A stretch of 58,239 nt of DNA from Candidatus Blackburnbacteria bacterium RIFCSPHIGHO2_01_FULL_43_15b (GCA_001816385.1 MHBW01000031.1:1-58239), one strand, 5' to 3'. Shown: positions 36,202-51,583, counted from the first letter of the stretch. A program made the numbers and translations. Notes: generated by a model not told the origin, from the sequence alone.

Positions 36202-37185
36202 TCACTTCGCCTTTATAAGAATCGGTGGAATAATACTACTACTGGCTGTTATTTTGATTGGGTCGAAAGCCAAGTCATCTTTCTCGGTTAAAATCTCATA
36301 CTCGCCGTCTTTAATAGGGGTAACGGTCATAAAATGACCAATTTTGTTGGTGCGCAGAGCTCTTACCGGAGTCCCCCCAACTTCTCTTATCTCAAGAATG
36401 GCTGACTCGACAATCTTGCCGTTGTTGGTTACCACCTGGCCGACAATAATATTAGGTTGCACGGGAGGATTGGGTGGTGCGGCCTGAAGCGCAAACTGCG
36501 CCTGAGAAACTTGTCGGTTTGAGGGTAAGGCAGTACCAAAAACCGGAGCCAAGGGGACAGTGTTGTATTCAACTTTAGTTTGAGGTTGAGGAAAATCCTT
36601 TTGCTGATGCTCAACCTTGATTGGCTGTGGGGGAGGAGCAAGTGGCGCGTTAGGGTCAATAGAAGCGGGAGGTTGTGGCGCAGATTGTTGAAACATCCCA
36701 AAAACTTTTTTAAAGAACCCTTTTTCCAATTCTTCGAGCCGGGTTACAACCTCTGCTTGGGGAACTGAGTGTAAATACTCTTCGGCTTTTTCCTGGCCTT
36801 GGGGAGCAATAACGGTTGGCGCGCTTACGCTATCAACAGCAAAGACATCTTCGGATGCCCCATTTTCCCAGGCATAAAGTGTTGGGGAATAAATTGCTTT
36901 AATAAAAGAGAAAAACCAAAAAGATAAAGGCCTTTCTTCAATGGGTAAAAAAGCCAGGGCCGCTCCTGAAATTGCAGCCAAAGCCACAATCGGCCATTTA
37001 ATTAAAGCTGGGAGGGGAGTAACGAAAATTAGAAAAGCAATTCCAACACCACCGGCCAGTTGTAAAAACTGTTTTAAGGTCATATCTCCTACCAGGCGGA
37101 ACTCGTAGGAGGAAATTTCTTGTGGTACCGGATGTTGTTCTAAAGGCATTTGCGACGTAGTCGCAAAACATAAAACATAATTCAT
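36202..37185 (-). CDS. PrgI/VirB3-like membrane protein with a C-terminal CarboxypepD_reg-like beta-sandwich
   Basis: 327-aa ORF (alternative ATG 37149). The N-terminus, SSYEFRLVGDMTLKQFLQLAGGVGIAFLIF... followed by a second TM helix, is typical of PrgI-family proteins. The middle is Pro-rich. The C-terminus reads IVGQVVTNNGKIVESAILEIRE...IKDGEYEI. Confidence 0.55.
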   Translation of the reverse strand: MNYVLCFATTSQMPLEQHPVPQEISSYEFRLVGDMTLKQFLQLAGGVGIAFLIFVTPLPALIKWPIVALAAISGAALAFLPIEERPLSFWFFSFIKAIYSPTLYAWENGASEDVFAVDSVSAPTVIAPQGQEKAEEYLHSVPQAEVVTRLEELEKGFFKKVFGMFQQSAPQPPASIDPNAPLAPPPQPIKVEHQQKDFPQPQTKVEYNTVPLAPVFGTALPSNRQVSQAQFALQAAPPNPPVQPNIIVGQVVTNNGKIVESAILEIREVGGTPVRALRTNKIGHFMTVTPIKDGEYEILTEKDDLAFDPIKITASSSIIPPILIKAK

Positions 37186-37369: not shown

Positions 37370-37690
37370 ATGTCAAAAGCTAAGATTAAAAGCACAAAAC
37401 TTCCTGGATTTTTAAGAGATTATTTTTGGGATGTAAGGTTTGATGAGCTGGATATTAAAAAATCCAGATTTTTCGTTCTCAAGCGAGTTTTAGATAGAGC
37501 TGACACGGGGGCTTTAAGATGGTTATTAAGAAATTACAACACAAAAGAAATTGTAGAAGTTCTTTATACAACTCGCGATATTTCTCAAGTAACTGCAAAT
37601 TTTTGGACTGATTATCTAAAGCTGGATAGAAAAAAAGTGATATGTTTGCAAAAGCCGCACTCCCCGATACAATGGGGGCTATCAAGCTAG
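37370..37690 (+). CDS. small protein of the type found upstream of or fused to AbiEii-like nucleotidyltransferases (putative antitoxin partner)
   Basis: 106 aa. The motif YFWDVRFDELDIKKSRFFVLKRVLDRADTGALRWLLRNY is one I recall from such modules. It overlaps the next ORF. Confidence 0.45.
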   Translation: MSKAKIKSTKLPGFLRDYFWDVRFDELDIKKSRFFVLKRVLDRADTGALRWLLRNYNTKEIVEVLYTTRDISQVTANFWTDYLKLDRKKVICLQKPHSPIQWGLSS

Positions 37691-38218
37691 TTTCAGATAT
37701 ACCTGAAATTAAAAAAGCATATCTTGCCGGCGGTACGGCTTTGGCCCTTCACCTTGGCCACAGAATTTCCATAGATTTAGATTTTTTTACCTCCAAAAAA
37801 TTTAACCCCCTGGGGAACAGTTTTGGGCAAGATTGGGCGTACAAAATTTAGCATCTTCTGTTGCCAATATCCGCTTATTGCCAAGCCTACAGGATTTGGG
37901 GGAATTCACATCGCCAGCAAAGAGGATATCGCGGCTATGAAAATCCACGCAATTGAAGAAAGGGGGACAAAGAGAGATTTTATAGACTTATATTTTTTGG
38001 CTCGGGACTTTTCAATGGAGCAAATGCTTGATTTTTACAACCAAAAGTATGGCGTTCTTGAAGAACATCTGTATATGATTATTCGAAGTTTAGACTATTT
38101 TGCCGGTGCCGAAGATAACGATATGCCCCAGATGATTGAAAGGGTTTCATGGAAAAACGTCAAAAAATTTTTTCAAAAACAAGCAATGAGACTGGCCCAA
38201 GAAAACTTTAGAATCTGA
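37642..38218 (+). pseudogene. AbiEii/AbiGii-family nucleotidyltransferase toxin gene, frameshifted
   Basis: Frame 1 (37642-37851) gives LAGGTALALHLGHRISIDLDFF. Frame 2 (37823-38218) continues with IASKEDIAAMKIHAIEERGTKRDFIDLYFL. The frames switch near the C6 run at about 37805-37810. Confidence 0.6.
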
Positions 38219-38231
38219 AAAGTGGTGGACA

Positions 38232-39530
38232 TTACACACTATTTCGCCATTTTTCTTGTAGTTCTTGGGCGCGGTGAACTTGAGCGTCTATTTTTTGTCT
38301 CTTTCGCGCTTTTCCACCTCCCTTGTCTACTCGAGATTGTTTTTGTTGCGCTTTTAGGAACGCATCGCGAAGACCATTAGTTAAATCTTCGTCTCCGTCG
38401 GCTCCTTCTTCGACCACGGTTGCTTCGGGTTCAGTGCTATATGACGGGGTAAGCGAGCCACGAAATCGTTGCCATCTCTGCGTTTGATCCTTTCTTTCCT
38501 CTTCTTTCAAAAGATCCTGCATAGGTGCTACTTCTGCAGCCGCCACTTCTGGTGCCGATGGTGTTTCTGGGGCAACTTCTACTTCTTCGTCCTGCCCCAG
38601 GGAAGCCTCTTGTTCTACAAGTTGGGAGTGGGTGATAAAACCATTTGTTATGTCAATTAAATCATAAAGATCAAACTTGTAACCTGGGGGTAGTCCAAAT
38701 AGGGTACGCAGTTCGGCTCTATCATCATGCCCCCCTCTCCTTGTTCGGATATCTTCCAAAACTTCCCGGCATTTTTCCTCTTGGAAATCTTCAGGCTTTT
38801 GTCCAGAACCTGTTGCCAGTTTCTCCCAAAAGCTCTCAGGGGTTCCCAGCCAAAATTCGTCGTTTCTTATTTGAGCTTCAACTTGTTCCCGATCGTTTGG
38901 ATCAGCACCTCTTTCTCTCAGCGACGCATTAATTTCGTCCAACAACCACCTCAATGGAGGCCTTGCTTCTCTTTTTTCAGAAGCTTGTCCTGCTTCACCG
39001 CGCGCTCTTAACCTGGCCCGTTCATTTTCAAACCAATAATCGGCTCGGTTTGCCATTAATGGGTTGGGGTTCCAGGCTTCTTGGTAAGTTCTGTAAGCAA
39101 TTTGCTCGTCTCTATCTCTAAAACGCGGCAGCTTTTCTTTTGTTTTTGCCGGTTCAGCTGTTCTTTCTCCGCCTCCCGAGGTTCCGCCGGTGGCAGCTCT
39201 TAAATCATCTAAAGTAGGGCTTTCACTGCTAATGTTGAGCATTCTTTTTAAGCTTTGGACATCTGTGCTGGTTGACCCTAGTTTTTGTGATTCTTCAGAA
39301 AGTGTAAAGCATACCAGCTCTTGAGTCCTTTCGGGTGGGGAGTGCGTGGAAGAACGCCTTGTCCAAAATCCTCGTTTTCCATACCAAAAATCTTTATCAC
39401 TTATGGCTTTGCGGACTTCTTCTGGATACTGAGTGTCAACTTCTCTTAAGCGCAGAGAGTGTTCAAGTTGGACAATAAAGGAACCAATTTGTGATTGTTG
39501 AAACTCTGATTGTGGGGCAAGCTCTGTCAT
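38232..39530 (-). CDS. highly charged soluble protein, no recognisable domain
   Basis: 432 aa, rich in Glu, Arg and Asp, with no TM helix or signal peptide. An internal motif recurs: DKDFWYGKRGFWTRR and NDEFWLGTPESFWEKL. Confidence 0.6.
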   Translation of the reverse strand: MTELAPQSEFQQSQIGSFIVQLEHSLRLREVDTQYPEEVRKAISDKDFWYGKRGFWTRRSSTHSPPERTQELVCFTLSEESQKLGSTSTDVQSLKRMLNISSESPTLDDLRAATGGTSGGGERTAEPAKTKEKLPRFRDRDEQIAYRTYQEAWNPNPLMANRADYWFENERARLRARGEAGQASEKREARPPLRWLLDEINASLRERGADPNDREQVEAQIRNDEFWLGTPESFWEKLATGSGQKPEDFQEEKCREVLEDIRTRRGGHDDRAELRTLFGLPPGYKFDLYDLIDITNGFITHSQLVEQEASLGQDEEVEVAPETPSAPEVAAAEVAPMQDLLKEEERKDQTQRWQRFRGSLTPSYSTEPEATVVEEGADGDEDLTNGLRDAFLKAQQKQSRVDKGGGKARKRQKIDAQVHRAQELQEKWRNSV

Positions 39531-39613
39531 ATTGCTTGTTTCACTTTAATACTAACTCTAATTTTTGCCTGGAGCAACTCTTTGCTATATAATTGTATTT
39601 AGTCTAAAAAGAC

Positions 39614-41641
39614 ATGGCAGAAATACTATTCCCATATACTCCAGAAATTAACCGGCCGACTTCCTGGTTTGAGCAAAGCCAGCTTGAGCTTGAGAGAATT
39701 AGCGAGAAAGAAGTATTGGGTCAGGCGGCAGGCCCCGACTTTTTAAGGCGAGGCGAGATTTTAGAAGATAGGGAAAGGATGGGAGCAAATGCCCGCCGGG
39801 CAGGAGCTTTTGCTTTGGCTGATGAAAGGTTAATGGGTGTGCTGGCTGGTTTGAGAGAGACTTCCAGACCTCTAGATTACGTTACCGAACTCACCCGAGG
39901 AGATAAATTGGCTCACGAAGCAGAAAGCGACCTTTGGAGTGAGCGTCGTTTTAGAAATAACCCAGATTTTTCTCGCCAAATCTACCAGGGAATGGTCGAA
40001 ATTTATATAGCCAACGCGCTTGAGGATATAAGAGATTCAATAAGAGGTGAAGCTCCACCGCCTCAAGAAGAGTGGGTGTGGGATATGCGTGAAGCTGCTT
40101 CTGCGCCCGAGCCAGCCCGACCCGAGCCAAGAGACGAAGGAGCGGAAAGAGTAAGAGAAGCCCAGCTTGCGGCAGCAGAAGCCCAACGCCAAGCGGCTGA
40201 GGAATTGCGAAGGTTAACACAACAACAAGCAGAAACTGAGAGAGCTCGTGCTGCTGCCGAAGCAGCCAGGGCTGCGGGTGTGGGAGAGCACGACCCCTAT
40301 AACGAAGAGAGATTTATTGTTTGGAACGACCCAGAAGACGAACGCGTTGATCGACCAAGAGCTTTTTCTCGACGTTGGGCTCGAAGCCATGGATTGCCTG
40401 ATGCCTTACTGTCCGGTGCTGGCAGGGGTGCAGTTATGCGAAGAGTTCATTCAAACGAAGTGTTAAGCGGTTATGCGGAGACTGGTAATAACCCGATTGT
40501 TAATAAGGCTTTAGAGCCGGTTATTGCGTCTTCGAAAGAGGACGGCTTTACAGAAGCAGCAGCAGCGGGTTTACTTCCATTACTACACCTAGACCGTGTT
40601 ATGCGGGGCTCCCGGCTTGAATATGTTGCCCAAGCACTAGAAACAAACGGTCCAACACCTGACGGAGTTGCCAGGTGGCTTCGTATAGATTCGGAGACAA
40701 GAAGATGTTTGGCCTTATTATTAAGGTTACAAGGATATCAGATAGCTGCCGAACCCGGGGTGCACGATGTTATAGAAGGACTGGGTCATAACAATATATT
40801 AGTAGGTACACGTCATAAATTTTCTGACGTTCGTAGAGTTGAGGGTTACAACGGACAACCAATAAACGATAAGGAGAGAAACGCAGATTTAAAGCGAGAC
40901 GAACTTCATAAGTATCTAGAGGCAGTCCAGAGAGCAGTTAATACTGATCCGGGAGTGGTGCGAGTAGCATACACAATATTTAGATATTTTGGCTTTCCGC
41001 ACGAAAATAGCAAATTCCTTGATTTGTATAATAAATACTTATATGACGAGAGAAACCCAAATGGAGATTTAAAGCCCGAAAAGAGAGACACAGAAGGAAA
41101 TCTAATAGAAGCTGGAGACTTGACTCCTTTTATAGATAAAATTAAAGACCCTGTGTCTGGAAGAATGCTTACTGAGGTTGCGGCACAGGATGGGATGATA
41201 GCTTTTGCTAATGCCCTCGAAGCCCCTGACCCTCTTGACCCAACAGGAACAGAAGCGCAACGTATTAGACGAGACTGGGAGGACCTCAAGCTTGTTTTGG
41301 ATGTTATGGACTCTGTAGCGGGTGCACGCACTGGCCAAGGTCCAAGTGGAGCAAATGTTGATTATGGCCGACGGTTGGAAATAATACAAAAAGCTTTTGA
41401 AAGGGATGCTGGAGTTGCACAAGTAAAGCGAAAGATAAGCCAAGAGGCTGTAAAAAGAATTGTAGACCCATCAAGAATAAAGCGCACAGATCAAGTAGCT
41501 AAAGTATCAAGTATACAAAGAGAAACACAAGGGGCTCGAGAAATTTTGCACCAGGCTACGGCTCCAGTTAGGGGAATTAAATCCTTCGACAGTTGGGTGA
41601 GAAGAGTTACGGGCCAACCTCCACGAAAAGACGAACAATAG
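39614..41641 (+). CDS. large charged soluble protein with an Ala/Glu/Arg coiled-coil segment, no recognisable domain
   Basis: 675 aa with no TM helix or signal peptide. The coiled-coil-like stretch is REAQLAAAEAQRQAAEELRRLTQQQAETERARAAAEAARAAG. Confidence 0.6.
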   Translation: MAEILFPYTPEINRPTSWFEQSQLELERISEKEVLGQAAGPDFLRRGEILEDRERMGANARRAGAFALADERLMGVLAGLRETSRPLDYVTELTRGDKLAHEAESDLWSERRFRNNPDFSRQIYQGMVEIYIANALEDIRDSIRGEAPPPQEEWVWDMREAASAPEPARPEPRDEGAERVREAQLAAAEAQRQAAEELRRLTQQQAETERARAAAEAARAAGVGEHDPYNEERFIVWNDPEDERVDRPRAFSRRWARSHGLPDALLSGAGRGAVMRRVHSNEVLSGYAETGNNPIVNKALEPVIASSKEDGFTEAAAAGLLPLLHLDRVMRGSRLEYVAQALETNGPTPDGVARWLRIDSETRRCLALLLRLQGYQIAAEPGVHDVIEGLGHNNILVGTRHKFSDVRRVEGYNGQPINDKERNADLKRDELHKYLEAVQRAVNTDPGVVRVAYTIFRYFGFPHENSKFLDLYNKYLYDERNPNGDLKPEKRDTEGNLIEAGDLTPFIDKIKDPVSGRMLTEVAAQDGMIAFANALEAPDPLDPTGTEAQRIRRDWEDLKLVLDVMDSVAGARTGQGPSGANVDYGRRLEIIQKAFERDAGVAQVKRKISQEAVKRIVDPSRIKRTDQVAKVSSIQRETQGAREILHQATAPVRGIKSFDSWVRRVTGQPPRKDEQ

Positions 41642-41650
41642 ACAAGAAAA

Positions 41651-43072
41651 TTACCTACCTGGTTTTGTTGCGCCTGCTATAGTTCCCCAGATAGCTCTGC
41701 CCGTAAAACTTGTTGAGGCACGCGCTTGCCCTTCTGCGCCAGACGCGATAGGTGTCCTTATAAGATTTGTTGCTTCTCCTGGGGCAAATTGCATAGGTCT
41801 TCTGGCAAAGACGTTACGAATGGCTTGGGGGACTTGGTGCGCAATCATTAGCATTCCCAACCCAATAAGAAAAGGTATTGCTCCAGAAACTAAAGTACCC
41901 CCGAGCATGGGTGGCATCCACAGATTTTGACCTGCATGTCGTATCAAAATTTGACCTAAAATAAGTACAAAAGCTACAGCGGGGAAAATTAGGATGTTTA
42001 TAAAGAGATTTTTAAACCAGTCTCCCGCTCCAGGCAACCCGGGAATAACACCCATAGCTATTTGGAGGGGACCAAAAACAACCCCCAAGATAATGAATAT
42101 GTACGCTTTGAGTAATTCAAAAAACAATTTGAAGAGTAGGTAAAGAACGATTATTGAGAGTACTAATACTACGACTGCTACTCCAAGTCCCACTATTCCC
42201 AAGGCAGTTAATGCGGTAATACCCAAAAATAGAAGTGAGCCAGCAGCTACCAAGCCGCCTGCTACTAATCCAGCAACCCCAACGCCAGTACCACCGTCTC
42301 TTGCGCCAAACACAGTGCTGAATAAACGCCCTGTAAGTTGCCAAAAGCCGCCATTGATAAATTCAGTTTGTAGGTCTTGGGCAGATATATATTCGGGAAT
42401 AGAACCGAAAATTAAGGCCACGATTGCAATCATGACATACAACAAATCAACCATAAGGCCCGCGATGGCGTAAGAGAAAGTAACAAGAAGCAAAGCTATT
42501 ACAATTCTTGGAATAGCTGATTGGATAGTAAGTGTTGTCCGAGGGTCGAGCTTCATTCTAAACATAATTGCTAAACCGATAAAAATAAAGACAATCGCGA
42601 AAAAGGCATAAGCAAAGTTACGAAAAGCTTTCCAAACGGGTAGAATAGGCGAAAAGGCACCAAACCCAGTTCCTGTTGTTTGAGCGTAAGCTTGTTGGAC
42701 TGGGTTGATGTGATGCAAAATGTCCGCAAAGTAAGTTACGCCTGATGCTGGTGGGTTAGCATATAAACTGGCTACCATTGTTGTTGTGATGGGGATAGCT
42801 CCAGTTTTAAGCTCATTTGGACAGTTGTTGTTTTCTTTTACGCAGCCTGACAAAGCTATGTTTGCAGAGTTAATAAACCCAGCAAAATTCTGTTCGGAAA
42901 ATTTTTGAAGATTTTGTCCTCCGGCTCCCAACGCTTCCTGATGAGAATCAAGTGAATACTGAGCATAGGCAGCAGGGGCGGCGACTAAAGCGCAGAAAAG
43001 AATAAATGCAAAAAACTTTGGGTGGTGGGCAACTATACGAATGAGATTGCGAGCAGGCTTGAAGAGTTTCAT
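41651..43072 (-). CDS. VirB6/TrbL-like polytopic membrane protein
   Basis: 473 aa. It has an N-terminal signal/anchor, a roughly 100-aa extracytoplasmic segment and then at least 6 TM helices rich in Gly, Ala and Ile. Its size, topology and locus context fit VirB6/TrbL. Confidence 0.5.
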   Translation of the reverse strand: MKLFKPARNLIRIVAHHPKFFAFILFCALVAAPAAYAQYSLDSHQEALGAGGQNLQKFSEQNFAGFINSANIALSGCVKENNNCPNELKTGAIPITTTMVASLYANPPASGVTYFADILHHINPVQQAYAQTTGTGFGAFSPILPVWKAFRNFAYAFFAIVFIFIGLAIMFRMKLDPRTTLTIQSAIPRIVIALLLVTFSYAIAGLMVDLLYVMIAIVALIFGSIPEYISAQDLQTEFINGGFWQLTGRLFSTVFGARDGGTGVGVAGLVAGGLVAAGSLLFLGITALTALGIVGLGVAVVVLVLSIIVLYLLFKLFFELLKAYIFIILGVVFGPLQIAMGVIPGLPGAGDWFKNLFINILIFPAVAFVLILGQILIRHAGQNLWMPPMLGGTLVSGAIPFLIGLGMLMIAHQVPQAIRNVFARRPMQFAPGEATNLIRTPIASGAEGQARASTSFTGRAIWGTIAGATKPGR

Positions 43073-43115: not shown

Positions 43116-44078
43116 TTACTTTTTCAAACTAACAAATTTTCGTGCTCTTTCTCTTTGGCCAATATATCTTCTAATTGCCTCATAGCTTGTTAACCAATTT
43201 CGGCCTTGCTTGTGGGCTTCAAGCTTGCCAGTTCGCGCTAACAAGTTTAAATATTTAGTTGAATATGGAGCTTTTCTACTCATCTGCCTAAGCGAACCAA
43301 ACTTTTCCCTGCGTTGGTTTATTGGTGTAAGGGTCTTTAAGTAAATATTCAGAGAACGTTCTACTGCTTGAGCAATAACTTGAACGAGAAGAGAATATTT
43401 TCCGCTATCTGCTTGGCTTAAAGCTCGATAGTATTTTTTTCTATCGTTTTTCAGTATAATAACCAACGGATATCCGGCCTTCATCAGTATAATATTCATA
43501 ACTAATCGTGCTGTCCGGCCGTTTCCGTCAAAAAATGGATGTATGTAAACGAGTTTGTGGTGCAACAGAGCTGCAAGTTCTATTGGGTGAAGGCGCTTTA
43601 TGTTTTTGGAAAACCAACGAATAAGATCAGGCATCTGTTTCGGTACGAGAAGCGCGTCGGGAGGAACATGATCGGCTCCTCCTATAAAAACATTGCTATT
43701 CCTATATTTTCCTGCATACTCTTCATCGGTTTTCTTCATAACGATTTGATGGAGCGTTCGTATTAAGTGCTCAGAGAGGGTTGGTTGCGAGCCGTGTTCG
43801 ACGGTCTCATGCAAAAATTCCAAAGCCTCATGATGATCTTTTGCTTCTAGATGGTCTTTAAGGGGTTTTCCTTTTATAGTTAAACCTTCTTGGATAACAA
43901 GATAAGTTTCTTTTAGAGTAAGGCTGTTTCCCTCGATGGCGTTTGAGTTGTAAGTCATTTCAATTTCAAACTGTTCTTGGAGTTTTTTTACGGCAGAAGG
44001 GGGCAAAGGCCTTAGTTTCTGAAGAATTTTTAGTTTGCTTTCTATTCTATCAATCAATATTTTGGATAAGTACGACAT
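43116..44078 (-). CDS. Fic-family protein with a canonical active site and a C-terminal DNA-binding-like tail
   Basis: The start is set at MSYLSKILIDR (ATG 44078). The motif HPFFDGNGRTAR lies at nt 43506-43541. EGNSLTLKET is also present. Confidence 0.85.
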   Translation of the reverse strand: MSYLSKILIDRIESKLKILQKLRPLPPSAVKKLQEQFEIEMTYNSNAIEGNSLTLKETYLVIQEGLTIKGKPLKDHLEAKDHHEALEFLHETVEHGSQPTLSEHLIRTLHQIVMKKTDEEYAGKYRNSNVFIGGADHVPPDALLVPKQMPDLIRWFSKNIKRLHPIELAALLHHKLVYIHPFFDGNGRTARLVMNIILMKAGYPLVIILKNDRKKYYRALSQADSGKYSLLVQVIAQAVERSLNIYLKTLTPINQRREKFGSLRQMSRKAPYSTKYLNLLARTGKLEAHKQGRNWLTSYEAIRRYIGQRERARKFVSLKK

Positions 44079-44164
44079 ATACTTAATATGGTTTAGCCTA
44101 AAAACAAGCATATACCATACTAAGTAACTTGTCAAAAAACCACCTCAAAAATTAATTGCATTTC

Positions 44165-44192
44165 TTGACATTTATATCAACTTTGATATAAT
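44165..44192 (+). promoter_or_regulatory. near-consensus sigma-70-type promoter for the XRE gene
   Basis: TTGACA at 44165-44170, a 16-nt spacer, then an extended -10 TGATATAAT (TATAAT at 44187-44192). Confidence 0.6.
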
Positions 44193-44265
44193 CACTATGG
44201 AATTTGAAATTAGTTACTACCAGGACAACTTGAACTTAGAAGTAGAGTTTATCACAAGGAGGAAA

Positions 44266-44565
44266 ATGAAAAGAAAAAAAGACGATCTTGATAGAACAAT
44301 AGAAAAAATTCTCAAGGAGGATCCTGCTTTTCAGTACGAGCTTGACCAAGCAGGGGCTGCTTGGGATATTGCTCTTCAGATTTATGATCTTCGCAAAAAA
44401 GCGGGTCTTACTCAAACGCAGTTGGCAAAATTGGTTGGAACTACTCAATCCAACATTGCTCGGATTGAAGCAGCGGACTATACAGGCTATACCCACAAAA
44501 CTTTAGAAAAAGTTGCAAGGGCACTCAATGCCAAGCTTGAAGTGAGACTGGTTCCTCTTCGTTAG
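44266..44565 (+). CDS. XRE-family helix-turn-helix protein (HigA-like antitoxin/regulator)
   Basis: ATG 44266 is preceded by AAGGAGG. The longer ORF from 44197 would have to be leaderless. The HTH is LRKKAGLTQTQLAKLVGTTQSNIARIE. Confidence 0.75.
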   Translation: MKRKKDDLDRTIEKILKEDPAFQYELDQAGAAWDIALQIYDLRKKAGLTQTQLAKLVGTTQSNIARIEAADYTGYTHKTLEKVARALNAKLEVRLVPLR

Positions 44566-44591
44566 GGAGCGAAGCCGCGGACGAAAACTGG

Positions 44592-45002
44592 TTATTGTCT
44601 GGGGCCGGCGCCGCGGACGGCGCTCCATTGGATTGTTACATACCCTGGATCAACTCCATTTTGTCTCATCCAACTTTCCGCTAAGGCTTTATTATTTTCG
44701 TATGGCTGCCTCTGAATAGAGATTAAGAAATAGTCCTGGTCAGGGAAGTACTGGACTGTGAATTGCTCCGAACTGAAGGGCAGTTGAGAAATTAAACGCT
44801 GCTTGTTTTGCTGTAAAGCGTTTTGTTCCTGTATGGTTAGGGCTTTGGTTGGTGTTGGAAGAGGTGAGGTGGTTTGTGTAGCGGGAGCCTGGTTGTTGCT
44901 GGTAAACACATAGCCTGCTGCTAACAAGATAACAATCAACAAGACAGCAATTCTTTTTTTACTCCTGGTAAAAAACTGGCCCATGGCAGTAAGGTATTTC
45001 AT
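44592..45002 (-). CDS. small membrane-anchored protein, function unknown
   Basis: 136 aa with a single N-terminal TM helix. Its start overlaps the stop of the upstream gene by 4 nt. Confidence 0.55.
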   Translation of the reverse strand: MKYLTAMGQFFTRSKKRIAVLLIVILLAAGYVFTSNNQAPATQTTSPLPTPTKALTIQEQNALQQNKQRLISQLPFSSEQFTVQYFPDQDYFLISIQRQPYENNKALAESWMRQNGVDPGYVTIQWSAVRGAGPRQ

Positions 45003-46072
45003 TGTGATTGGGAAGAATATGACTTAAAAAGCCTCCATACGGTTCCACAGTAATCAGGCCCACACGCACGACTTGGGTTGCATGTTCCACAGTAGGCCCC
45101 AGCAACCTTTCTTATAGTTGGCTCGTCCCAAGCTGGTGTTGCTCCGGCGTCCCTTTTTATTTTAACAGCTGTGCCAACAAAAGCTGCAGCCACATTACAC
45201 CGATCGTCGGCAGTGATGGTCTTGTTCAATCCAAATTTTGATTGCAACACGCTTTGGATACCTACTAAACCACGAGAGGCGTTATCGTTTATTAAACTTC
45301 TCCATGTGGCGGCCTCGAATTGTGTTGCTCCACGGACGTCGTTGTTTGGACAACCCAATGACGGATCAGAACAGGTATTGTAGCAATACCCCTTTTTGAG
45401 GGTGTCGTATGGCGAACCAGCCCACCAATTGTCCGTGCTAAAAAACTTCACGTCCTCATCTGTGTAGCTAAAAGCTCCCGGGGCTTCGGTTTGGGAGATA
45501 GCCAATAAAAGAGGGGCTGGAACTTCAGTTGCTTCGGCTGCACTATTTATGATTCCCTTAAGATTTTCGGATTGCATATTGAAGGCTGAGGCGATTCCTG
45601 AGGTTATTCTGAAGGGATTAGCGTTGAATGGGTTTAGTGAGTCGATATATTCGTCAACTCCGCGGTTAAACTCGTTCTTTGTTTCTTCTGTTTCGGTCAG
45701 CTTAGGAGCATTTGTTCCATTGGTGTAAATAGTCCCAAAGAAAGGTATGCCGCCAGAAAAAAGCCTGGCGAAAACTTCATCAAACAGACCCCTGAGGGCA
45801 TTAAAGAAGTTTTCAAATTGTGCTTGGGGAGAGGGTGTGGGAGCATAGGCATTGGTTGAGTCACGGAAAAACTCCGCAGATTTTCCGAAGTCAGCAATGG
45901 TTGGAGAATCTCCTTTGTAAGGAATTAATTTCTGGGCGTTTTCAGGGCTAAATAGCTGCTGGCCCTTTTCGGTTCCGTAAGAATCGGGAGTAGTATCAGC
46001 AGCGTGCGTGGTTTGTGTGAATAGAATCAAAAAGAAGGGTAGGAGTGATAAGAATGATAAGAAGCGGATCAT
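44999..46072 (-). CDS. secreted lytic-transglycosylase-like (VirB1-like) protein
   Basis: 357 aa with a signal peptide (LLPFFLILFTQTTHA). LLLAISQTEAPGAF...VRGATQFEAATW resembles the catalytic Glu and G-x-x-Q motifs of SLT domains. The C-terminal half is Cys-rich. Confidence 0.5.
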   Translation of the reverse strand: MIRFLSFLSLLPFFLILFTQTTHAADTTPDSYGTEKGQQLFSPENAQKLIPYKGDSPTIADFGKSAEFFRDSTNAYAPTPSPQAQFENFFNALRGLFDEVFARLFSGGIPFFGTIYTNGTNAPKLTETEETKNEFNRGVDEYIDSLNPFNANPFRITSGIASAFNMQSENLKGIINSAAEATEVPAPLLLAISQTEAPGAFSYTDEDVKFFSTDNWWAGSPYDTLKKGYCYNTCSDPSLGCPNNDVRGATQFEAATWRSLINDNASRGLVGIQSVLQSKFGLNKTITADDRCNVAAAFVGTAVKIKRDAGATPAWDEPTIRKVAGAYCGTCNPSRACGPDYCGTVWRLFKSYSSQSQ

Positions 46073-46088
46073 GAAGAGTTTCTAATTT

Positions 46089-46143
46089 AAAAATTGTAAT
46101 TTGATAATTGATTGAAAATTGTAAATTGAAAATTAGAAATTAC
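46089..46143. repeat. 7-bp periodic AT-rich repeat (NAAATTG units)
   Basis: aaaattg taatttg ataattg attgaaaattg taaattg aaaatta gaaatta. The related string ggaaattgaaaattggaaattggaaattga occurs inside tsaD at 17435-17464. Confidence 0.7.
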
Positions 46144-46150
46144 TCCATTC

Positions 46151-46489
46151 CTATGGAGTCGTTACCTTAAATTGAGTTACCTGCACTCCTGTTACAGCTT
46201 GAATAACCAATAAAACCGCAAATGCCAAAACCAAAACAACTAGCCCCGCAATGGCTGCTGTTAGAGTATGTTTTGCTGATTCTACTGCCTTTGGATCAGA
46301 TCCTGAGGTTAGATATTTAAAACCTCCTATCAAAAACGTAACGAAAACTACCACACCGGAAAGAGCCAAAACGACATCAACGACGTTCCCAAAAGCGCAC
46401 TCCAAACCAGCAATTGTTGCGACATCCGACGCATCAACTGTGTCGCTTATCTTTGTGCCAACACATGCAGTTCCCAACCAGCTTGCCAT
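46151..46489 (-). CDS. VirB2/TrbC-like pilin-module protein, paralog 1
   Basis: 112 aa with two TM helices flanking the loop FLIGGFKYLTSGSDPKAVESAKHTLTAAIAGLVVLV. Confidence 0.55.
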   Translation of the reverse strand: MASWLGTACVGTKISDTVDASDVATIAGLECAFGNVVDVVLALSGVVVFVTFLIGGFKYLTSGSDPKAVESAKHTLTAAIAGLVVLVLAFAVLLVIQAVTGVQVTQFKVTTP

Positions 46490-50141: not shown

Positions 50142-51209
50142 CTACCCGAATCCTGGTAATCCTAATATATCTACTCCAATTAATTTTAACAAGAAGACGG
50201 AAAAAATTATCAAAATTAAACCGGATATCGCTGCGTTTAGGAGCTCCTTCCCACCTTGAATTTTATCCGGGTTGCCTGTTGAGCTCATAATTTGGAATCC
50301 TGCGAAGATTATTAACAAAAATGCAACCCCTCCAGCTATTCCCAAGGCCCACTTCAGAAACCACCCAACGAATTGATTGGTGTCTCGTATGGGTATGCAT
50401 CCTAGGGCTGTTTGCAAACTTGTTTTGCTTGAGTCGCACCAAGTAGGTTCGAATGCTGAGGTCGGCGGAGACTCCTCTCCAGGTTTGTAAGTAAAGGTGC
50501 TTTGATCTCCTCTTGTTTTGCCAACACTAAACTCACGAGAGCAAAGAACCTCCGCACTAATATCATCTGTTCTGCGTGCTTTAACTACAATGGTGTATTG
50601 ACCGTCTGATTGGAAATTGCCGGCGGTCGCCTCATATGTATCACCCTTTTGGCCACCACTGATTATTTGGCCTTTGTCAGGAGAAATTTCTGAGAATAAA
50701 CCGAACCTAGCTACAGCGATATCTGTAAGTTGAGAAAAATTTGAGAAAACAAAGTTAACCTGCTGGTCTACTCCTGGCTGCTTAGGGGTTTGGTCGACTC
50801 GGCATCCCTCATATGACGGATATACCTTATAATCAATTCGACAAACCTCTTCACTCTCACTATTAGCTTTAGTTATCTTAATTTGCTTATCTCCTACTGA
50901 TGTTTCATTTCCCTCCCCACCAACACTAAAAGTGAGGTCGCTACCTTCTACTTTGGGGGTCAGGGGCATTGAGCTGTCACGAGCATTCAGTTTAAGTAAA
51001 TACCAATTACCCCCACGAACAAAGTAAATGCTATAGTCTTGAGTAGGGTTAAATTTGTATCCGGAGACGGTGAATTTGGCTGGTCTGTCAGCGTAAAGTG
51101 TTTTAGGGTTGGTGGTTACCGAGCAACGATCAAATGCATAAGCTGGGCGAGGAACAATGGTGGCTGGTGCAAGGAGTGCAACCGAAATTAAAAAAAATAT
51201 TTTTTTCAT
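50142..51209 (-). CDS. large secreted ectodomain fused to a C-terminal VirB2/TrbC-like pilin module (paralog 8)
   Basis: The start is set at MKKIFFLISVALLAPA (ATG 51209), giving a signal peptide. A roughly 280-aa beta-rich domain follows. The C-terminus is FLLIIFAGFQIMSSTGNPDKIQGGKELLNAAISGLILIIF. Confidence 0.55.
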   Translation of the reverse strand: MKKIFFLISVALLAPATIVPRPAYAFDRCSVTTNPKTLYADRPAKFTVSGYKFNPTQDYSIYFVRGGNWYLLKLNARDSSMPLTPKVEGSDLTFSVGGEGNETSVGDKQIKITKANSESEEVCRIDYKVYPSYEGCRVDQTPKQPGVDQQVNFVFSNFSQLTDIAVARFGLFSEISPDKGQIISGGQKGDTYEATAGNFQSDGQYTIVVKARRTDDISAEVLCSREFSVGKTRGDQSTFTYKPGEESPPTSAFEPTWCDSSKTSLQTALGCIPIRDTNQFVGWFLKWALGIAGGVAFLLIIFAGFQIMSSTGNPDKIQGGKELLNAAISGLILIIFSVFLLKLIGVDILGLPGFG

Positions 51210-51307
51210 ACAAACAAACCCTCTTTTTCTAGAGGTTTGTGCAAAGTGTAGCACAATAGACCCGTTTCTCGCGAGTTTGGCTTGTTGTTTCGTGATACAA
51301 TGCAGCC

Positions 51308-51583
51308 ATGGAGAAAACAATTTTAAACTATCGAGTTATTATAGAGCCTGAAAAGTATCCAAGTGGCGATCTGGTTTATAATGCCCATTGTCCAACACTG
51401 GGTGTAGCTGACTATGGCGATACTGTGGACGAGGCTTTATCAAGCATACAAGACGGTATTGAATTAGCTATTGAAACCTTGGCGAGTAAGGGCGAGGGTG
51501 TTCCGGTAGATAACATTGAACAACAGATAATAGCTTCAGCAAAAGTTACTTTTCAACAAAAGTTAAAAATCCAAATAGTCTAA
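51308..51583 (+). CDS. hicB: HicB-family antitoxin
   Basis: 91 aa. YRVIIEPEKYPSGDLVYNAHCPTLGVADYGDTVDEALSSIQDGIELAIE fits the HicB/UPF0150 fold pattern. Confidence 0.7.
   Translation: MEKTILNYRVIIEPEKYPSGDLVYNAHCPTLGVADYGDTVDEALSSIQDGIELAIETLASKGEGVPVDNIEQQIIASAKVTFQQKLKIQIV

Follow-up and report, generated by a model that had tools for sequence, protein, structure and literature searches.

The chromosomal type IV secretion system (T4SS) of the Patescibacteria, or candidate phyla radiation (CPR), is described in two reports as lying near the replication origin, as lacking a relaxase and as having an unknown substrate (PMC12102498, PMC10633639). In Southlakia, the sole Patescibacterium tested, it is essential for epibiotic growth; its cargo is not known (PMC10633639, PMC12102498, PMC12857230). 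Most CPR T4SS loci are without a relaxase, and the existence of unrecognised relaxases has been suggested (PMC12102498). Here we examine a divergent pair of genes inside one such locus, encoding a protein of 432 aa (P0001) and one of 675 aa (P0002). The locus lies in a stretch of 58,239 nucleotides (the window, along whose whole length coordinates are counted) from Candidatus Blackburnbacteria bacterium RIFCSPHIGHO2_01_FULL_43_15b, an ultra-small bacterium from groundwater whose genome assembly totals 0.905 Mb (35 contigs, 97% completeness). We find that P0002 fills a conserved slot beside the VirB6-like gene of the secretion system, a slot that close relatives fill with unrelated versions.

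How does this locus compare with those already described? Along the window the genes run dnaA, dnaN, an unknown of 360 aa, an M23 peptidase, VirB4, a TrsD-like protein, PrgI, a DUF6922/AbiEii module, P0001, P0002, a VirB6-like protein, Fic with a helix-turn-helix (HTH) protein, two exported proteins and an array of VirB2-like pilins. The chromosomal Patescibacteria T4SS, which is related to MPF-FATA (Quinonero-Coronel et al. 2025, PMC12102498; Wang et al. 2023, PMC10633639), is the same machine in the same context: shared are VirB4, the TrsD-like protein, PrgI, the peptidase, the VirB6-like protein and the VirB2-like array beside dnaA and dnaN, the lack of a relaxase in the locus, and a gene like those of type IV coupling proteins (T4CP) elsewhere. 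The T4CP-like gene is an open frame of 782 aa at about 7400–9800 of contig C10 (loci L073 and L074), far from the T4SS locus, with matches to TraG-D_C and TrwB_AAD_bind. We conclude that the locus, proximal to dnaA, is the Microgenomatia form of the chromosomal Patescibacteria T4SS. A preliminary description of this DNA had placed the pair between VirB3-like and VirB4 genes on one side and a VirB6-like gene on the other, and correctly so: PrgI (VirB3-like), the TrsD-like protein and VirB4 lie to one side and the polytopic VirB6-like protein to the other. The conserved left anchor of the variable region is the PrgI/VirB3-like gene (36202..37185, minus strand; Pfam PF12666); of 61 genomes sampled across the class, 60 have it. 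The VirB6-like gene (41651..43072, minus strand), convergent with that of P0002, encodes a polytopic membrane protein of 473 aa with a signal-like N-terminus and about seven transmembrane (TM) helices. In the available portions of the two papers, where neighbouring genes are compared only with known mating-pair formation (MPF) profiles, we found no description of a soluble variable slot or of the pair, and a literature search returned no paper describing the slot.

What occupies the slot in other genomes? The interval from PrgI to the VirB6-like gene holds the pair in every Blackburnbacteria locus that we fetched. All 15 loci of the order encode, tail-to-tail with the VirB6-like gene, one soluble protein of 440–923 aa, with a D+E content of 13–18% and a K+R content of 12–16%. 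Across the class the same arrangement was found in 17 of 20 loci of different families (587–1436 aa), the remaining three being split next to PrgI. The contents are diverse, 37 slot proteins falling into 21 BLAST clusters. Comparison of the C-domain classes A–G by hhalign detected no relation among them, bar a weak link between C and E (40% probability); the idea of one hidden superfamily embracing all the classes was dropped, profile comparison having given only this C–E signal. Individual classes recur across distant families (B in G003 and G089, C in L003 and G077, E in three families), and several may be found within one family (A, B, C and D in f1). Taken together, these two patterns point to an old pool of alternative cassettes, re-assorted between lineages.

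The machine itself varies far less than the occupant of the slot. Of 41 relatives, 40 have a VirB4, at 67–95% identity, while homologues of P0002 are found in 4 of 10 members of the family and are missing from all 30 genomes of the other two families; within the genus VirB4 is 95% identical, as against 36–42% for P0002. Homologues of the pair bear the names Candidatus Blackburnbacteria or Microgenomates, and among 5.8 billion clustered proteins there are eight relatives of P0002 and four of P0001. For the C-terminal part of P0002, which we call type A, a profile search of 1.84 billion representatives returned 28 clusters, all with E <1e-10 and none weaker, and a repeat search with a wide alignment added nothing new. 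Type A was found in only one of 400 other genomes of the class. All seven relatives' loci that were fetched and read (L065–L070 and L072) have type A in the same T4SS slot. The possibility that the homologues would turn out to be housekeeping proteins unlinked to secretion genes is thus not borne out; their linkage to the T4SS is tight. Each gene of the pair is present as a single copy in the genome. The locus of G002 is split (L062; L063/L065), the half with PrgI, VirB4 and the peptidase lying 28 kb from that with the pair, the VirB6-like gene and the pilins, so that even here the pair remains linked to the VirB6-like gene.

P0002 (39614..41641, plus strand) is, by its open reading frame (ORF), its translation and the conservation of its slot, a soluble modular protein in a class-wide variable position opposite the VirB6-like gene. 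Its helical N-domain (aa 1–170; 39614..40123, plus strand) is shared by P0002, P0003, P0006 and P0010 at 63–75% identity, and matches to its hidden Markov model are confined to this small group. P0006 and P0010 carry unrelated C-domains, their homology to P0002 ending at a long helix rich in Ala, Glu, Arg and Gln (aa 176–221; 40139..40276, plus strand), which is the GC-richest stretch and has a recombination joint at its start. On sequence comparison, therefore, close relatives combine the N-domain and long helix of P0002 with at least three C-domains that are unrelated.

Are these exchanges confined to the C-domain? To judge by the identities of three related loci to the window, they are not. 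In L001, P0001 domain 1 is 66% identical, the linker 59%, domain 2 76%, the P0002 N-domain 75%, its C-domain 94% and the VirB6-like protein 95%. The corresponding values for L003 are 61, 77, 79 and 74%, an unrelated C-domain (21% when the alignment is forced) and 59%; for L004, which belongs to the same genus, they are 27, 85, 88, 29, 45 and 63%. The profile of DNA identity has joints near 39200, 40100–40250 and 43100. Three blocks result: the first is P0001 aa 116–432, the second runs from P0001 domain 1 across the spacer and through the P0002 N-domain, and the third unites the P0002 C-domain and the VirB6-like gene. The joints of recombination coincide with domain boundaries, and by this profile P0001 domain 1, the promoter spacer and the P0002 N-domain have been exchanged as one block. 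Values of dN/dS were 0.01–0.58 in the measurable segments (0.19–0.41 for P0001), several divergent segments being saturated and giving no estimate; they indicate constrained genes, under purifying selection in all measurable segments. No orphan cassettes were found genome-wide.

The AlphaFold2 model of P0002 has a mean predicted local distance difference test score (pLDDT) of 62.8 and a predicted template modelling score (pTM) of 0.51. The N-domain is predicted as helices with pLDDT 50–85 and the long helix, at 83–88, is followed by a disordered linker (aa 222–283), the all-alpha type A C-domain (aa 284–625; 40463..41488, plus strand; pLDDT 70–89) and a C-terminal helix with a mildly basic tail (41489..41638, plus strand). 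The Ala/Glu/Arg coiled coil proposed earlier is sustained to the extent that one long helix is predicted; a coiled coil and a single helix are not distinguishable here. Like P0002, P0001 is modelled as all-helical. Foldseek comparison of both models with the PDB, and of P0002 with BFVD, gave a best E of 0.04–0.5 with TM-scores of about 0.1, which is no credible fold match. A VirB8-like protein would have an N-terminal TM helix and an NTF2-like alpha/beta domain, neither of which is seen, there being no TM helix and only all-alpha models; nor do the Walker A or HUH motifs, or the Pfam and NCBIfam matches, of a core T4SS ATPase (VirB4, VirB11, VirD4) or a relaxase appear. A Cys–His pair in type A (C365 and H463) was considered as catalytic; it is invariant in close relatives, is not so in an alignment of 27 sequences, and was discarded. 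The last 20 residues of the type A cluster representatives carry a mean charge of +3.2, compared with +0.86 for the genome, at a Mann–Whitney p of 6e-7 that is overstated because the sequences are related.

P0001 (38232..39530, minus strand) is, from its ORF, translation, homologues and lack of TM helices, a soluble acidic protein encoded by a partner gene that is restricted to the Blackburnbacteria family. The repeat D-x-(D/E)-F-W-x-G-x-x-x-F-W noticed in it before is real, and is part of something larger, a duplicated domain of about 100 aa. Helical domain 1 (aa 12–115; 39186..39497, minus strand; pLDDT 80–90), the first copy by internal alignment, contains D-x-D-F-W-x-G-x3-F-W. Helical domain 2 (aa 190–300; 38631..38963, minus strand; pLDDT 72–86, with invariant columns) is the second copy and is followed by a conserved DLYDLIDITNGFIT motif. 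Aligned half against half, the protein gives a Smith–Waterman score of 69, compared with 30.8 ± 5 for shuffles (z = 7.7); a relative aligns by BLAST in two registers; and each copy has one Cys, Cys74 and Cys254, in equivalent places. The model, of mean pLDDT 62, shows the two helical domains and then a disordered acidic region with a basic C-terminal helix (aa 310–432; 38235..38603, minus strand), pLDDT being below 50 at aa 310–383 and the helix spanning aa 408–431. The last 30 residues of P0001 carry a net charge of +6 and those of its family members +5 to +8, the genome background being +1.0 ± 2.8. The domain 2 region, DLxDxTNG motif included, has a weak hhalign match to the partner protein of G002. 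Homologues in L001, L003 and L004 are 55–58% identical and adjoin the partner gene. P0001 is present in 3 of 10 genomes of the Blackburnbacteria family, and was seen only where the P0002 N-domain occurs. Its position is taken in other genera by unrelated proteins of 307–380 aa with a terminal CxxC...CxxC tail resembling a zinc ribbon (L049 7402–8544, L050 8263–9186, L051 7956–8924 and L057 8836–9786); three of these are weakly related mutually, and for that of L051 no link was found.

The coordinates of the divergent ORFs, 432 aa on the minus strand and 675 aa on the plus strand with 83 bp between them, were borne out, and conserved N-termini of the homologues back both start codons. By sequence scan the spacer (39531..39613) contains a promoter-like site, TTGCCT-17-TATAAT, at 39565–39593 and directed toward P0002; with 10 of 12 matches it is the best sigma-70-like site of the region, the regional number of such sites being not above that of shuffles. 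Hydropathy upholds the absence of TM helices and signal peptides from both proteins. They had also been called very rich in Glu, Arg, Asp and Ala. The charge is indeed high in both: D+E is 18.8% in P0001 and 16.7% in P0002, K+R 14.8% and 14.5%, and the content of D, E, K and R stands at the 98th and 95th percentile, respectively, of 620 ORFs of the genome, with Arg high and Lys low in each. Ala is abundant only in P0002 (11.4%, 96th percentile), that of P0001 being ordinary at 7.9%. As previously stated, neither protein contains a recognised domain, there being no Pfam or NCBIfam match for either; searches of both against PHROG and PADLOC gave no match, sequence-profile searches of the PDB found nothing, and no Walker or HUH motif is present in the pair. 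Orphans they are, then, as regards function, having no known domain or fold, but not as regards relatives, given the 28 clusters of the type A C-domain.

The VirB6-like protein is itself fast-evolving, at 60–63% identity within the genus as against 95% for VirB4. Beyond its gene, at a site corresponding to 43116–44565 of the window, each relative has a different module of toxin–antitoxin type: Fic and HTH here and in L004, HicA/HicB in L001 (13631–14093) and BrnT/CopG in L003 (9413–9959). The block 43116–46489, which extends from Fic to the first pilin and takes in the genes of 136 and 357 aa, is nearly identical to that of the same-genus locus L004/G001. Fic is 99% identical, and dS is 0–0.025 for the 136-aa, 357-aa and pilin genes; that of the flanking genes is about 0.7–1.3. 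Such near-identity beside such divergence suggests that two species recombined very recently. A further hot spot of divergence is a fusion protein of 392 aa in the pilin module (50142–51320), which is 46–57% identical to its close relatives, the neighbouring pilins being mostly 76–98% identical.

What, then, might the pair do? The preliminary description had offered secreted substrates and novel machine components among the possible roles, and these are the two leading readings. We tentatively favour the former, at a probability of about 0.42: P0002 would be a dedicated client of this T4SS or a host-specificity protein, and P0001 its cytoplasmic partner. As a client, P0002 would be engaged at the VirB4/VirB6 channel and exported to, or into, the host bacterium, where its exchangeable C-domain would provide a host-specific activity or contact. 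P0001 would stay in the cytoplasm, serving the P0002 N-domain as chaperone or adaptor. In favour of this we count the identity of the locus, the conserved machine set against a variable slot, the modularity, the constraint on the genes, the solubility and the absence of a Sec signal, the basic tails, and the T4CP-like gene elsewhere in the genome. A more sweeping proposal, which we hold to be doubtful, would make slot proteins in general the substrates of the Patescibacteria T4SS: recombination would reshuffle a class-wide pool of many unrelated effector ‘heads’ that decide which host bacterium each epibiont can exploit, and lineage-specific N-terminal tags, with P0001 and similar partners, would bring them to the channel.

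Several observations weigh against the client reading. The evidence that P0001 domain 1 and the P0002 N-domain co-vary comes from three comparisons of adjacent DNA, and one recombination event could explain it. In some relatives' loci type A stands alone, as a protein of 377–442 aa without the N-domain and without P0001; since type A can fill the slot in this way, a pair of chaperone and tag is not general. No enzymatic, toxin or binding domain was recognised in the slot proteins scanned. The structure models are modest, with a mean pLDDT of about 62 for both. The tail of P0002 is only mildly charged, at +2 for the last 20 residues and +3 for the last 30, the latter within the genome background given above. 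Finally, nearly every genome has one copy, always in this slot, which is what one would expect of a machine subunit just as much as of a substrate.

Suppose that P0002 were such a subunit. It would then be an accessory that is not secreted and that partners the short VirB6-like protein, either in the cytoplasm or as a plug of the channel. In function it would match the large hydrophilic domains fused to ‘extended VirB6’ proteins in other lineages, with P0001 as a further subunit, accessory or regulatory. The slot is always beside the VirB6-like gene, in the 15 order loci and 17 of 20 class loci alike, with exactly one copy per genome, and the P0002 C-domain (94%) and the VirB6-like protein (95%) are inherited as a block with respect to L001 and are both divergent in L003 and L004, although this may reflect adjacency alone. 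VirB6-like proteins beside type A are somewhat more alike than the similarity of PrgI predicts, a comparison that kinship confounds; classes B, C, D1 and E, on the other hand, show no such excess of VirB6 similarity between families (residuals −0.04 to +0.03). Saccharibacterial VirB6-like proteins of 999 and 1089 aa have ARM-like hydrophilic domains, as listed in PMC10633639 (Table S2), compared with 473 aa here, and Anaplasma has acidic, hydrophilic VirB6 extensions that vary between strains (PMC3556328). However, the P0002 gene is on the opposite strand, so P0002 is not a simple fission product of VirB6, and so many unrelated classes would be unusual for a fixed subunit. We regard this explanation as less probable than the client reading, but as a serious rival to it. 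The exchange of C-domains also recalls a polymorphic toxin, in which the P0002 N-domain would serve in trafficking, the C-domain would be an interbacterial toxin and P0001 an immunity or targeting factor; a conserved N-domain with unrelated C-domains in close relatives, a joint at the linker and helix, and an adjacent partner gene are what one would expect of it. But P0002, P0006, P0010, eight other slot proteins and 27 type A members have no Pfam match above cut-off (a match of one slot protein to DotZ, E = 0.011, was below cut-off and was dismissed). No small gene lies downstream of the C-domain, the convergent VirB6-like gene coming next. P0001 is 55–58% identical whether its partner is of type A or type C, and hence independent of the C-domain class, and it is absent where type A stands alone; the genome, moreover, is without orphan cassettes. 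A polymorphic toxin is thus improbable.

Two further explanations carry less weight still. Were the T4SS to move DNA, the pair might process DNA or nucleoprotein, as a relaxase that has escaped recognition or as an accessory pair. The missing relaxases of most CPR loci, and the suggestion of unfamiliar ones (PMC12102498), would accommodate this, as would conserved Arg, Lys, His and Tyr residues in type A; yet there is no HUH or Walker motif, the all-alpha fold has no match to known relaxases, unrelated classes share the slot, and the Cys and His conserved among close relatives vary in the wider family, which makes such a role very improbable. The other explanation, also put forward in the preliminary description, is that the pair is recently acquired foreign cargo, inserted into the T4SS locus. 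The GC contrast cited at that time, 57–65% in single lines against about 30% in the pilin region, was overstated: only 2 of 56 lines of 60 nt reach 57%, both inside the Ala/Glu/Arg helix (65% at 40092 and 58% at 40152), and the pilin region averages 42.8%. A slight elevation does exist, the P0001 and P0002 genes having 46.3% and 47.2% GC as against 43.0% for the genome (89th–93rd percentile of 2-kb windows, standard deviation 3.0%), and the distribution of type A in the class is patchy. However, GC at third codon positions is about 35% in both genes, under the genome mean of 39.8%, so the excess stems from codons for Arg, Ala, Glu, Asp and Gly and not from foreign DNA. Synteny is maintained in all the Blackburnbacteria relatives, and the slot is kept in the order and the class. 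A real local insertion is to be found next door: the DUF6922 and AbiEii-like module (37370–38218) between PrgI and P0001 is present in this genome only, and must be a local insertion since P0001 lies within about 100–120 bp of PrgI in L001, L003 and L004. We therefore reject recent acquisition, which is scarcely credible.

A slot gene beside the channel gene that close relatives replace by unrelated versions is a testable candidate for the cargo or for a determinant of host specificity, and the mapped module boundaries can guide the cutting of constructs. Should P0002 prove to be a fixed component, it would stand out among the parts of secretion machines for its plasticity, and would be informative as such.

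How do these proteins compare with other known systems? The extended VirB6 proteins, namely the Rickettsiales paralogues, including Anaplasma VirB6-4 (PMC3556328), and SEML1_0011 and SEML1_0013 of Southlakia, are large, acidic, hydrophilic, strain-variable and tied to VirB6, as is the slot protein. Here, however, it is encoded by a separate gene on the opposite strand, next to a VirB6-like protein of 473 aa without a large hydrophilic domain; unrelated domains are swapped where there the number of repeats changes, and we found no similarity of sequence or fold. Substrates of VirB/VirD4 type have an unstructured basic C-terminal tail, to which may be compared the charges of +3 and +6 on the last 30 residues of P0002 and P0001 (background +1.0 ± 2.8). 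The polymorphic toxins (LXG proteins of type VII secretion systems, contact-dependent inhibition and Rhs systems) combine a conserved N-terminal part with unrelated C-terminal parts, as do P0002, P0006 and P0010, and in LXG systems helical partner proteins bind the N-terminal part. They differ in that no toxin domain, downstream immunity gene or orphan cassette was found here, and in that the C-domain can fill the slot without the N-domain. CagA of Helicobacter is a large, homologue-less, strain-variable effector encoded in a T4SS locus, with its chaperone, the acidic partner CagF, encoded nearby. There is no homology between the two pairs, the proposed target here is a bacterium, and whole domains are replaced; like CagA, nevertheless, P0002 is large and variable, lies in a T4SS locus and has an acidic partner encoded nearby.

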